Source: Thermoproteota archaeon (GTDB taxonomy: Archaea; Asgardarchaeota; Jordiarchaeia; Jordiarchaeales; Freyrarchaeaceae). From it: 64,000 nt of DNA. The notes under the pieces were generated by a model. That model made no database searches and was not told where the DNA came from. It saw only the letters and a list, made by a program, of their open reading frames with translations. This document shows positions 4,223-28,553 of the stretch, one piece after another; positions within the stretch are counted from its first letter, which is position 1; the number at the start of each line of letters is the position of its first letter. Position numbers and translations under genes: made by a program. Location of the stretch: assembly GCA_029258835.1 (NCBI GenBank), contig JAPDJY010000034.1:31036-95035 (forward strand), read 5' to 3'.

Positions 4223-4351
4223 GCGGGGGTTGCCTAGTGGCTAGCAGGGCAAGAAGCACGCCCACAAAAGGCGCTGGCCTGGAGTTAGCTGCTACCTGAA
4301 AGCCAGTTCCCCGTTTGGGGAGCGTGGGTTCGAATCCCACCCCCCGCGCCA
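4223..4351 (+). tRNA. tRNA-Ser(GGA), two introns (D-loop 4243-4267; 37/38 4285-4300), CCA encoded
   Basis: Acceptor GCGGGGG/CCCCCGC, G73, CCA; T-arm GTGGG-TTCGAAT-CCCAC; long variable arm; anticodon stem CTGGC/GCCAG; BHB-like motifs. Confidence 0.85.
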
Positions 4352-12392: not shown

Positions 12393-13596
12393 ATCGCTCT
12401 TCAGAAGGTATTACCGTGAAAACCCTGTTACACCTCCTCCATCGATGGAAAAGCGTGAGTTTGGCTTCATGTTCTTCGGAACTAAGGCGATGGCGAGACA
12501 CCTGTCTTTCTTAGCCGTTGAGGAGCTTCAAGGATTCCTGTCATCCGAGGCTCCGTCAGGAGCATTCTACTCAGCGGCATACTATCTAGACCCCTCTGCT
12601 CCAAGGATGGACGAGAAAGGGTGGATAGGATGCGACTTAATCTTCGACATAGACGCCGACCATTTAGACCTTCCATGCAAGAACGTCCATGATAAGTGGG
12701 CTTGCAAGAGTTGCGGTGAAAGTGGCTTCGGCGTGAAGCCGGAGCGCTGCCCTAAGTGCGGGAGCCAGGATCTAAATGAGAAAGCATGGTTATGCGAGGG
12801 TTGCTTGGACGCTGCAAAAACGGAACTTGTCAACCTGATCGAGGAGTACCTCATACCAGATTTCGGAATCGGTGAGGGCGAGCTTAAACCGGTATTTTCA
12901 GGGCACAGAGGATACCATCTTCACGTTACGTCGAACGCGGTGCTGGACTTGGACCAAACTGCACGGCGTGAAATCATTGACTATATAAGGGGAACCGGGC
13001 TCCAACCACGCTATCACGGGCTCTCCGAGGTGAGGGAGGGCAGAAGTAGGATCATAAAAGGGCCAAGCGTCGAGGCTGGAGGGTGGAGGGGGAGGCTTGC
13101 CAGAGGAATAGCTGAAACGATCTTATTAATGGGCGAAGAGGACCTTCCAGAAAACCGGAAGTTGCGGTCGGGTTTAAAGAGCCTGCTAAGAAACAAAGGT
13201 AAAGTTACGGCGTCACTAAGAAAAGGATTCTGGGATCCAGTTAAAGGCGTCGACATAAGTACATGGGAGTATCTTGCCGAGCTTACGGTTAAAAGAGTAG
13301 GTGGTAAGATAGACGAGCCGGTCACAGCGGATGTTAGGCGCCTCATCAGGCTCCCCACATCCCTTCACGGAAAAACGGGATTTAGGGTTACCCCCCTGAA
13401 GGTTAAGGACCTAAACCGTTTTGACCCGTTTAAAGACGCATTGGTGTTTAAGGGGGAGATCAGAGTGCAGGTTGAGGATGCACCCCAGTTTAGAATAGGC
13501 GAAGAAACCTTCGGCCCATATAAGAATGAGGCTGTCGAGCTCCCCCTTTCCGCGGCGGTTTTTCTAATGTGTAAAGGTGCTGCTTACTTGAAGTAG
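12358..13596 (+). CDS. priS: DNA primase small subunit with Zn-ribbon insertion
   Basis: REFGF, DLIFDIDAD, FSGHRGYH, DEPVTAD.RRLIRLP.SLHGKTG. Confidence 0.96.
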   Translation: MSGKAKTEFYLKSLFRRYYRENPVTPPPSMEKREFGFMFFGTKAMARHLSFLAVEELQGFLSSEAPSGAFYSAAYYLDPSAPRMDEKGWIGCDLIFDIDADHLDLPCKNVHDKWACKSCGESGFGVKPERCPKCGSQDLNEKAWLCEGCLDAAKTELVNLIEEYLIPDFGIGEGELKPVFSGHRGYHLHVTSNAVLDLDQTARREIIDYIRGTGLQPRYHGLSEVREGRSRIIKGPSVEAGGWRGRLARGIAETILLMGEEDLPENRKLRSGLKSLLRNKGKVTASLRKGFWDPVKGVDISTWEYLAELTVKRVGGKIDEPVTADVRRLIRLPTSLHGKTGFRVTPLKVKDLNRFDPFKDALVFKGEIRVQVEDAPQFRIGEETFGPYKNEAVELPLSAAVFLMCKGAAYLK

Positions 13597-20886: not shown

Positions 20887-21038
20887 GGTCCCGTCGCCTA
20901 GCCAGGAGCTGCAGACTGAAAGGGCGCCGACTTGCAAGAGCGTAAACGTAGGCGTAAGCCTTCTAAGCCGGAGTTCCCGGGTTCAAGAACCACCACTAAG
21001 CAACTTGGTGGTGGTTGAAAGTCCCGGCGGGACCACCA
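20887..21038 (+). tRNA. tRNA-Arg(TCT), three introns (D-loop ~20909-20920; 29/30 20930-20957; 59/60 20988-21021)
   Basis: Acceptor GGTCCCG/CGGGACC plus ACCA; spliced anticodon arm CCGGC-CTTCTAA-GCCGG; clean BHB TTCA/TGAA with ACCACCAC/GTGGTGGT outer helix; D-loop boundary less certain. Confidence 0.9.
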
Positions 21039-22313: not shown

Positions 22314-22409
22314 AGCCCCGGGCGGGTATTCCGACTTGCTTCGAACCCGCGACCTGCGGCTCACCCGAACACTTACGAGGCCGCCGCTCTACCACTGAGC
22401 TACCGGGGC
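22314..22409 (-). tRNA. tRNA-Thr(CGT), two 12-nt introns (37/38 22362-22373; 59/60 22328-22339)
   Basis: GCCCCGG/CCGGGGC acceptor, U73, GCGGC-CTCGTA/A-GCCGC anticodon arm, BHB helices CTCG/CGGG and TTCG/CGGA. Confidence 0.9.
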
Positions 22410-26092: not shown

Positions 26093-27480
26093 TGAAAGCT
26101 CTTGAAATACTAAAGAAAATCCCCCTCTGCAATAGTTGCCTAGGTAGGCAGTTCGCCCTCCTAGGCATGGGATCAAATAACCCGAGCAGAGGGCATGCCT
26201 TAAAGCTAACCCTAACAATGACCGCACACTACATGCTCAGGGAAAATCCCGAGGAGGCCGTCAAGATCCTCAAGGTTCTCGCCTCCAACGGAATGTTCCA
26301 GCCCGCGGTGGAAACCCTACAGAAGGAAGGAATTCCGATAGAGGTCAGCGAGAATAAATGCTACATCTGCGGTGGATTAATGCTCAGAAAAAGGGAAATC
26401 GCCCAGAAGATAGCTTCCCTCCTAGAAAATTATGACTACAGAACACTTCTGATAGGATGTCACGTACCAATAGACCTCACTGAGAGGGACGATGAAGTTA
26501 AAGCCGCACACCAAGTGGATACGGGAGAGTCGCTTAAGGCAGAGTTCAACAGGGAGGTTGGGAAAATAGTCTCAGCTCTTACCGGTAAACCAGTAGACTT
26601 CAAAAACCCTGACATAGTAGCCGTCGTAAACCTTGAAAACCTAGAAGTAACGATCAACTCAAACCCGATTTACATTGGAGGACGCTACCTAAAATACGTA
26701 AGAGGAATTCCGCAAACCAAATGGCCATGTAAAGCATGCAAAGGGCAAGGATGTCCCCGATGTGGAGGAACAGGAAAGATGTACCCTGAATCCGTGGAAG
26801 AACTCGTAACAGCCCCAATCCTCGAGGAAACCGGAGGGGAAGAAGCAAAGTTCCACGGGGCAGGAAGAGAAGACATAGACGCGAGAATGCTCGGCACAGG
26901 CCGCCCCTTCATAGTAGAAGTGAAAAACCCAAAGAAACGCAACATAGACCTCCAAAAACTACAGGACAAAATAAACCAGTACGCCCAGGGGAAAGTCGAA
27001 GTCCACTCCCTCCACTTCGCAGTAAAAGAACAGGTAAGACAGCTGAAAGCCCTATCCCAGTTCGCCCCTAAAACCTATAAAGCCATAGTTAAAGTCGACA
27101 GGGAGATAACCTCAGAAGAGCTTAAAGCACTTGAACAAAAACTCACAGGACAAACAGTAAGGCAGAAAACGCCAAGAAGGGTAGCCCACAGACGGGCCGT
27201 GAAAACAAGGCTCAAAAAGGTCTACGAGGCACACGTAAACCAAGTAGACCCTCACACCTTCGAGCTAATTGTAAAATGTCAAGGTGGACTTTACGTCAAA
27301 GAACTAGTAACAGGGGACAGGAGAAGAACACGGCCAAGTGTATCAGAAATACTAAATGCGAAAGCAGAGTGCACCCAACTAGACGTAATAGACGTAGGAG
27401 CAACAATACCCCCACAGGAAGAACAAAACCAAAAAGTTTATTTATCACCCACCTACTCACTCGATCACGAGGGCCCGTAG
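26080..27480 (+). CDS. pus10: tRNA pseudouridine 54/55 synthase Pus10
   Basis: LC.SCLGRQF, THUMP region, GRYLK..RGIPQT, HGAGREDIDARM, GGLYVKEL. Confidence 0.96.
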   Translation: MYPIVKALEILKKIPLCNSCLGRQFALLGMGSNNPSRGHALKLTLTMTAHYMLRENPEEAVKILKVLASNGMFQPAVETLQKEGIPIEVSENKCYICGGLMLRKREIAQKIASLLENYDYRTLLIGCHVPIDLTERDDEVKAAHQVDTGESLKAEFNREVGKIVSALTGKPVDFKNPDIVAVVNLENLEVTINSNPIYIGGRYLKYVRGIPQTKWPCKACKGQGCPRCGGTGKMYPESVEELVTAPILEETGGEEAKFHGAGREDIDARMLGTGRPFIVEVKNPKKRNIDLQKLQDKINQYAQGKVEVHSLHFAVKEQVRQLKALSQFAPKTYKAIVKVDREITSEELKALEQKLTGQTVRQKTPRRVAHRRAVKTRLKKVYEAHVNQVDPHTFELIVKCQGGLYVKELVTGDRRRTRPSVSEILNAKAECTQLDVIDVGATIPPQEEQNQKVYLSPTYSLDHEGP

Positions 27481-27590
27481 CTCAGCCAGGTAGAGCGACA
27501 GGCTCATATCAGCCTACAACTGTTGAGAAACCTGTTGGTCCAGGGTTCGAAAGCATGGAGCTCCTCCAGCCGGAAATCCCTGCGGGCCCA
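27471..27590 (+). tRNA. tRNA with CAT anticodon, likely tRNA-Ile2, two introns (37/38 27509-27529; 59/60 27552-27576)
   Basis: GGGCCCG/CGGGCCC acceptor typical of archaeal Ile, A73; ACAGG-CTCATA/A-CCTGT; BHB helices CTCA/TGAG and TTCG/CGGA. Confidence 0.88.
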
Positions 27591-27893: not shown

Positions 27894-28022
27894 GCCTCGG
27901 TGGTGTAGCCCGGCCAAGGTTACGCTGATAGCATAAGGGGCTTAGAGGCTACGTCCTCGCCCAATCGACCCCTTGACCCGGGAACCACATGTTCGGGACT
28001 TCAAATCCCGGCCGAGGCACCA
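27894..28022 (+). tRNA. tRNA-Glu(TTC), three introns (D-loop 27917-27929; 34/35 27944-27964; 53/54 27983-27999)
   Basis: GCCTCGG/CCGAGGC plus ACCA; GTGTAGCCCGG D-arm; spliced AGGGG-CTTTCGA-CCCCT; BHB helices CGGC/GCTG, GGGC/GCCC, CCCG/CGGG. Confidence 0.9.
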
Positions 28023-28128: not shown

Positions 28129-28306
28129 TGGCGCCGGGGGCAGGATTTCCGTTTGCATCTCGAACTTTCGCTCCCTTGGCTGCTGTTTCTAGCCCAGGGA
28201 TCTGCGACCACCAGGTCGCTGCGTACATGTACATAACAGCCTGGCGCTGACGGCCCGGCGCGCACGTGGCGCCTTACACCGTCTACCTGAACTGAGCTAC
28301 CCCGGC
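28129..28306 (-). tRNA. tRNA-Asn(GTT), four introns (D-stem ~28281-28248; 37/38 28233-28217; 52/53 28201-28166; 59/60 28158-28146)
   Basis: GCCGGGG/CCCCGGC, G73, CCA; removing 34+17+36+13 nt leaves a standard 78-nt cloverleaf with CCAGG-CTGTTAA-CCTGG. Confidence 0.88.
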
Positions 28307-28553
28307 ACCTAGTGAATGAGTAGGTTAGTCTTTCTTCTTAAATTTTTCGTGTGTTTACGTGAGAGCTAGTTGTTGGGATGGTGCAAGCCGGCTGTAAAGC
28401 TTAGAGGCTGCTAGAGAGGGTTTAAGATTGCTAGGGTGCTAATGGGCTCATTGGCTGGATGTGTCATGTTGCGTGGCTTTATTGGTTTTTCAGCATGTTT
28501 ATAAGGGAATGTTCTACTATTGTTCATTTGAGTTGTTGCATGGAGGGTTTGGT

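Follow-up and report, generated by a model that had tools for sequence, protein, structure and literature searches.

A tRNA-Asn(GUU) gene interrupted by four introns in a Jordarchaeia (Asgard) genome

Anatomy and surroundings of the tRNA-Asn gene

The window, i.e., the whole stretch of 64,000 nucleotides of DNA that was analysed, contains a genuine tRNA-Asn(GUU) gene that is split by four introns into five exons and whose host belongs to the Jordarchaeia (Asgard). The locus measures 178 nt, lies on the minus strand (28306-28129), and reads GCCGGGG...CCCCGGC-G-CCA, the CCA end being encoded in the genome. Introns account for 100 of the 178 nt (56%). Exon 1 (28283..28306, 24 nt; all features of the gene are on the minus strand) comprises tRNA positions 1-22, i.e., the 5′ strand of the acceptor stem, the 5′ strand of the D stem, the D loop, and G22, and is the same as in the sister orthologues described below save for position 13 and the D loop. 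It is followed by intron 1 (28249..28282, 34 nt), which interrupts the 3′ strand of the D stem at 22/23 and carries a relaxed bulge-helix-bulge (BHB) motif. Exon 2 (28234..28248, 15 nt, positions 23-37) supplies the 3′ strand of the D stem, position 26, the 5′ strand of the anticodon stem, and the loop residues CU-GUU-A, and is separated by intron 2 (28217..28233, 17 nt, strict hBHBh′) at the canonical site 37/38 from exon 3 (28202..28216, 15 nt, positions 38-52), in which the 3′ strand of the anticodon stem, the variable loop, and T stem positions 49-52 are found. Intron 3 (28166..28201, 36 nt, hBHBh′) is inserted at 52/53. Downstream of it lies exon 4 (28159..28165, positions 53-59), a micro-exon with the sequence GTTCGAG whose length of 7 nt had been noted in the first-pass annotation, and then intron 4 (28146..28158, 13 nt) at 59/60, which has a minimal bulge-helix-loop form. 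Exon 5 (28129..28145, 17 nt) completes the gene with positions 60-73 and CCA, i.e., the 3′ strands of the T stem and the acceptor stem and the discriminator G73.

The cut in the D arm can be written as either 22/23 or 23/24, because the mature sequence is the same either way; the bulge-helix-bulge register favours 22/23. With this refinement of the D-arm site, the first-pass description of the locus (178 nt, four inserts, a cloverleaf of 78 nt, the intron lengths and positions, and an intron share of 56%) was found to be correct throughout. After removal of the four inserts, the resulting 78-mer (including CCA) was called by ARAGORN as tRNA-Asn(gtt) with stems of 7/4/5/5 bp, i.e., a perfect cloverleaf. 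Its discriminator base is G73, which in bacteria is an identity element for asparaginyl-tRNA synthetase; its relevance in the present organism is assumed.

A TATA-like box, TTTAAGAA, is located at 28335..28342 on the minus strand, 28 nt upstream of tRNA position 1, and is considered a putative promoter element. The same box occurs 23-24 nt upstream of the Asn orthologue in each of four genomes of the sister genus, and the neighbouring tRNA-Glu gene has TTTTAAAA at a similar upstream distance. Both elements are likely the TATA boxes of tRNA promoters. No spare copy of the gene's seven initial bases was seen in the 34-nt leader.

In total, the window holds six tRNA genes including that for Asn. 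The tRNA-Glu(UUC) gene (27894-28022, plus strand) encodes its CCA end and has three introns, of 13 nt at 20/21, 21 nt at 34/35 (inside the anticodon), and 17 nt at 53/54; the Glu and Asn genes are convergent and lie about 100 nt apart. A tRNA gene of Met/CAT type with a G1-C72 acceptor pair (27471-27589, plus strand, score 80) is interrupted by a 21-nt intron at 37/38 and by another of 25 nt at 59/60. The remaining genes are those for Ser-GGA (4223-4347, plus strand, two introns), Arg-TCT (20887-21034, plus strand, three introns), and Thr-CGT (22315-22409, minus strand, two introns). With the window left intact, no tRNA was called in it by ARAGORN, and none of the Rfam families was matched at its gathering score; under permissive Rfam settings, the sole weak match in the window was the Met gene (18.8 bits). 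Across the whole genome, 12 loci reached the Rfam cut-off for tRNA, and ARAGORN in intron mode returned 23 calls, several of which had implausible introns of 450-700 nt and none of which was Asn. That tools overlook such genes matters for the annotation of Asgard genomes, and a recent preprint likewise reports that inserts in the D arm are missed by standard annotation (Goswami et al. 2026, bioRxiv 10.64898/2026.10.13.758758).

Introns in the tRNA genes of the host genome and in published sets

The genome is a MAG of 2.72 Mb in 91 contigs with an estimated completeness of 94.7%. Its tRNA genes were catalogued with our own finder, which was started from TTCRA anchors outside of long ORFs, passed through a prefilter, and kept calls with a score of at least 60. 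This yielded 41 tRNA genes (about 46 are expected), all 41 of which were confirmed by ARAGORN after in-silico splicing with the same anticodons. The number is a lower bound, because the Met/CAT-type gene at 27471-27589 of the window was missed, probably through ORF masking. The 41 genes carry 99 introns (mean 2.41 per gene, median length 19 nt), the commonest positions being 59/60, 37/38, 58/59, and 53/54. Introns interrupt 39 of the 41 genes, and 31 have two or more of them: two genes lack introns, eight have one, twelve have two, twelve have three, four have four, and three have five. Given that an average tRNA gene contains 2.4 introns, processing of genes of this kind must be routine for the cell. 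The CCA end is encoded in the genome for 32 of the 41 catalogued genes.

Besides Asn-GTT, four introns are present in the genes for Arg-GCG (G000 C30:24825-24971), Phe-GAA (G000 C42:19037-19179), and Asp-GTC (G000 C31:3039-3198). Genes with five introns appear to number two to three, one of them doubtful: apparent cases are Ser-CGA (G000 C28:31155-31332, minus strand, score 86) and Pro-TGG (G000 C31:3295-3476, plus strand, score 66), for both of which the spliced form was accepted by ARAGORN, and the third, Ser-AGA (score 62), is a doubtful call. At the threshold of the finder, a candidate gene for tRNA-Sec(UCA), interrupted by three introns, was also recorded (G000 C13, about 12406-12555, plus strand; borderline score of 60), the spliced form of which was called by ARAGORN as tRNA-SeC.

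Whether the gene in the window is the only one for tRNA-Asn had been raised as a question in the first-pass annotation. The anticodon GTT was found in one gene only of the 41-gene census, and a blastn-short search of this incomplete MAG with the mature sequence likewise gave no second Asn locus.

To our knowledge, three introns per tRNA gene is the usual stated maximum for the Thermoproteales. On the same footing, the first-pass annotation had placed multi-intron tRNA genes mainly in the Thermoproteales, with three introns as the most in any gene, and had suggested that a gene with four might surpass the highest number described. Both statements are out of date: the host is an Asgard archaeon of the Jordarchaeia and not a member of the Thermoproteales, four-intron genes were tabulated in 2024, up to five introns were reported in 2026, and further genes with four introns, as well as apparent five-intron genes, occur in the same genome. 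Introns were described in 92-95% of the tRNA genes of Atabeyarchaeia and Freyarchaeia by Valentin-Alvarado et al. 2024 (Nat Commun, PMC11291895), and the columns of Supplementary Data 4 of that study run to “intron 4”. Four-intron genes are thus already on record there, namely Arg-TCT, Ile2-CAT, and Leu-GAG of Freyarchaeia and Trp-CCA of Atabeyarchaeia-2. Goswami et al. 2026 (bioRxiv 10.64898/2026.10.13.758758) report 2.20 intervening sequences per gene for Freyrarchaeaceae, Jordiarchaeaceae, and Atabeyarchaeaceae with a maximum of five, and loads of 2.01 for Jordiarchaeaceae and 2.42 for Freyrarchaeaceae, which the value of 2.41 obtained here matches. In lineage as well as in having about two or more intervening sequences per gene, the host belongs with the heavily interrupted Asgard sets, and orthologous Asn loci occur in Candidatus Jordarchaeum, Jordarchaeia, and Jordarchaeales, to which, among archaea, all exact-pattern matches of the T-arm architecture in the public genome collection were confined.

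The Asn gene is hence a clear example of a published phenomenon and represents no new kind; the known picture is left unchanged, since the phenomenon, its scale (as many as five introns in one gene), and what is known of the enzymes have all been published. As in the published Freyarchaeia and Jordarchaeales sets, the introns are short, mostly non-canonical, and found within the D arm, the anticodon arm, and the T arm, with more than two per gene. In the complete Freyarchaeia genome (PMC11291895), however, the Asn gene has two introns, whereas the present one has four, among them a lineage-specific canonical intron and a minimal intron of 13 nt. It thereby offers a well-supported case of extreme fragmentation of an archaeal tRNA gene, with 56% intron and an exon of 7 nt. 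In a review (PMC4090602, citing Sugahara et al. 2007 and 2008), the Thermoproteales (Pyrobaculum, Thermofilum, Caldivirga) are similarly described as having several introns per gene at non-canonical positions, with BHB, hBH, and HBh′ motifs that are spliced by proteins, and as possessing an (alpha-beta)2 EndA of broad specificity; the host of the Asn gene, in contrast, belongs to a different phylum. Multiple and ectopic tRNA introns are also known from the red alga Cyanidioschyzon merolae (PMC3728597, PMC9602550), which differs in that its genes are located in a eukaryotic nuclear genome, are processed by a Sen-type endonuclease, and include permuted genes as well.

Orthologues, tests against chance, and the history of the introns

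Two tests were applied to the possibility that the locus had arisen by chance, i.e., a comparison of orthologues, which makes no use of splicing motifs, and a spliced-cloverleaf dynamic programme of our own, in which a tRNA model is allowed to contain BHB-gated introns at any position. Run unsupervised, the dynamic programme recovered exactly the four introns of the Asn gene with a score of 70. As decoys, 1500 anchors on reversed sequence were used, of which 111 passed the prefilter, and the best of these scored 56. Since introns are gated on BHB-like geometry in the finder, its agreement with the described boundaries is not independent of the motif, and the orthologue comparison is the only motif-free test.

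In this comparison, orthologues of the Asn gene with near-identical exons were found in four species of a sister genus of the same family (G001-G004). Inserts are present in all of them at the same three sites, i.e., 22/23 (13-22 nt), 52/53 (18-30 nt), and 59/60 (16-21 nt); their lengths differ from those in the window and their sequences are unrelated. The anticodon stem shows a compensatory change, with A29-U41 in the window vs. G29-C41 in the sister genus. Three Freyrarchaeaceae genomes carry an Asn gene whose two introns sit at 48/49 and 59/60, in agreement with the number tabulated for the complete Freyarchaeia genome. The micro-exon GTTCGAG is unchanged in five of five family members as well as in the three Freyrarchaeaceae orthologues. 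In locus L048 of the same-order relative G006, whose coordinates coincide exactly with those of the published complete Freyarchaeia genome (Asn gene at 1651332), the finder gave no hit above threshold; the Freyrarchaeaceae architecture is taken from the published table and the three genomes just named.

These data bear on the concern that a cloverleaf might simply emerge when four deletions can be chosen freely in a GC-rich stretch. Random sequence with several free deletions does score up to 56 in our own model, but the Asn locus reaches 70, its boundaries were found again without supervision, and the same exons recur around different inserts in seven other species of the order. For practical purposes, the comparative data exclude such an artefact, and we regard it as having virtually no chance of being correct.

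It is also very improbable, if slightly less so, that the locus represents a pseudogene in decay, burdened by insertions, and that a working tRNA-Asn gene resides in the unassembled 5% of the genome. The MAG is indeed incomplete and fragmented into 91 contigs, its census of 41 tRNA genes stays below a full set, and the sister species have a stronger BHB motif for intron 1. Against decay, the exons are intact and near-identical to those of the orthologues, and the change in their anticodon stem is compensatory; the TATA-like box and the CCA end have both been preserved, and each insert is placed such that its removal restores a perfect cloverleaf. Moreover, the majority of tRNA genes in this genome contain interruptions of the same sort, and interruption is therefore the norm here and no sign of decay.

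The distribution of the inserts shows that introns accumulated stepwise in the Asn gene. The 59/60 intron is common to both families of the order and is old, because its junction sequences are the same order-wide; the introns at 22/23 and 52/53 are shared family-wide, and that at 37/38 occurs in the present lineage only. The latter insert is absent from the Asn orthologues of the four sister-genus genomes and the three Freyrarchaeaceae genomes, and intron 2 is consequently regarded as a lineage-specific gain, given its absence from all seven orthologues compared. The value of the gene lies in part in this series, in which one order-wide, two family-wide, and one lineage-specific intron can be followed on a single gene within one order. 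When the 99 catalogued introns of the genome were compared with each other by blastn-short, no relatives of any Asn intron were found, and strong matches between introns were obtained only for the paralogous Ala-TGC and Ala-CGC genes. There is hence no sign of intron copying, as no Asn intron resembles any other catalogued intron, which agrees with the negative result on the arrival routes of introns in the 2026 preprint (bioRxiv 10.64898/2026.10.13.758758).

Splicing motifs, enzymes, and proposed maturation

Of the BHB cores, those of introns 2, 3, and 4 have all four of their four pairs with 3-nt bulges, in line with the first-pass annotation, which had assigned BHB geometry to these three inserts with the central helices CTGT/GCAG, TCGC/GCGA, and TTCG/CGGA; intron 1 has three of four pairs. 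A flanking helix of at least 2 bp is available to introns 2 and 3, to intron 4 only when intron 3 is absent, and is lacking for intron 1. Intron 2 has a strict hBHBh′ motif (CTGT/GCAG, bulges UA|U and CG|A, h = 7, h′ = 3), and its BHB conformer lies 1.5-3 kcal/mol above the MFE. When the whole precursor is folded, the hBHBh′ motif of intron 3 (TCGC/GCGA, h = 2, h′ = 5) is itself part of the MFE structure at both 37 and 70 °C.

In intron 4 (TTCG/CGGA), a 6-nt loop takes the place of the inner helix, and the outer helix has a single base pair in the primary transcript (h = 1) and five (h = 5, the T stem) without intron 3. The predicted cost of forming its motif (ddG) is 0.7 at 37 °C and 2.4 at 70 °C before removal of intron 3, and 0 and 0.4, respectively, after removal, when it becomes the MFE structure. 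The 59/60 intron of the sister genus retains an inner helix h′ of 3-5 bp, compared with 1 bp here, and is for this reason independent of prior splicing.

The core of intron 1 (AGGT/GCCG) has three of four pairs, with an A-G mismatch beside the 3′ bulge and a single base pair in each of h and h′; cores with three of four pairs such as this one are classed as “relaxed” by a published classifier. At exactly this junction, the 22/23 insert of the sister genus forms a helix of four out of four pairs (AGGT/RCCT) with 3-nt bulges in four of four species. The position is thus a genuine BHB site at which the motif has slipped in the present lineage, because the core is complete in all four sisters. In the fold predictions, the ends of intron 1 are instead paired with each other in a 6-bp helix (GACGGT/GCCGTC), and the BHB conformer lies 6.5 kcal/mol above this MFE at 37 °C and 4.7 kcal/mol at 70 °C. 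Intron 1 has a degenerate motif and constitutes the least certain splicing step. A mirror-image BHB for this intron (GGTG/CGCC, bulges 5′ of the helix strands), judged by eye, was rejected, as canonical geometry requires the bulges to be on the other side of the central helix.

Two EndA paralogues (proteins with PF01974/PF02778) are encoded in the genome. The first (190 aa; G000 C1, ORF L041:1210-1782) is closest to the catalytic subunit of the Aeropyrum pernix heterotetramer (3p1z_B, E-value 4e-46), retains Tyr, His, and Lys, and has the Crenarchaea-type loop aligned. In the second (G000 C6, ORF L042:862-1788, plus strand), Ala is aligned to the catalytic His of the EndA of Methanocaldococcus jannaschii (M. 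jannaschii), and by this pattern the protein is a putative structural subunit. Its EndA domains are preceded by a predicted N-terminal extension of about 135 aa of low complexity that is rich in Ser, Thr, and Pro; the true start codon may lie further downstream. An RtcB is encoded as well (E-value 1.6e-182). In its predicted assembly and substrate range, the EndA pair fits an (alpha-beta)2 architecture, the class that cuts relaxed motifs, and a two-subunit architecture is on record for the majority of Asgard genomes (Goswami et al. 2026, bioRxiv 10.64898/2026.10.13.758758).

Weighing gene and enzymes together, we hold it highly probable that the Asn locus is functional and that its four introns are removed by the archaeal protein-only pathway, i.e., by EndA followed by RtcB. 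We infer that transcription of the gene yields a precursor of about 180 nt. Each BHB or bulge-helix-loop motif would be cut inside its 3-nt bulges by an EndA of broad specificity that is probably assembled as an (alpha-beta)2 heterotetramer, and RtcB would then ligate the exons. Introns 2 (37/38) and 3 (52/53) are expected to be good substrates already in the primary transcript, and intron 4 would turn into one after removal of intron 3 has allowed the T stem to form.

The weakest point of this scheme is intron 1, and it was considered whether the D-arm insert may be no standard EndA substrate at all, such that the gene would have three BHB introns and one atypical insert that is removed by another route or with slightly shifted boundaries, or that maturation of this tRNA is inefficient. 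The incomplete central helix with its flanking helices of 1 bp each, the end-to-end MFE helix of 6 bp, within which or at whose end the cut sites would come to lie, and the cost of 4.7-6.5 kcal/mol for the BHB conformer all point in this direction, and insertions in the D arm are the class most often missed by tRNAscan-SE according to the 2026 preprint. Yet the complete AGGT/RCCT helix is found at exactly this junction in all four sisters, the D stem cannot form with the insert in place, the gene is the only one for Asn found in the genome, and (alpha-beta)2 enzymes are known to accept relaxed motifs (review PMC4090602). An atypical D-arm insert is therefore judged improbable, and removal of all four introns by EndA remains the preferred reading.

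Ordered splicing had been postulated in the first-pass annotation as a need. What holds up in the fold models is that an order is structurally plausible as a preference and possibly as a requirement, because intron 4 has the T stem as its outer helix and this stem forms only once intron 3 is out; the order of removal itself we infer from these folds. A stronger version, in which the missing inner helix of intron 4 would make splicing obligatorily ordered and interdependent and in which intron 1 would be cut through an undefined, relaxed mode of recognition by Asgard EndA, is put forward tentatively and is rather unlikely in our estimation. What retains interest in this gene is that intron 4 depends on intron 3 having been removed first and that intron 1, in the D arm, has a degenerate motif. 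With a strict BHB, a splicing-dependent bulge-helix-loop, and a degenerate D-arm motif combined within 178 nt, the precursor is a compact test substrate for the range of Asgard EndA.

Public sequence data were consulted for traces of the locus, i.e., 23 listed runs, mostly metagenomes from marine or hydrothermal sediments, of which four were examined. Among these four, the only metatranscriptome that matches the stretch has one exact contig, which terminates at exon 1 of the neighbouring Met gene, and the Asn gene is covered by none of its contigs. DNA contigs in the public runs match the intron-containing Asn locus exactly and may derive from the source sample.
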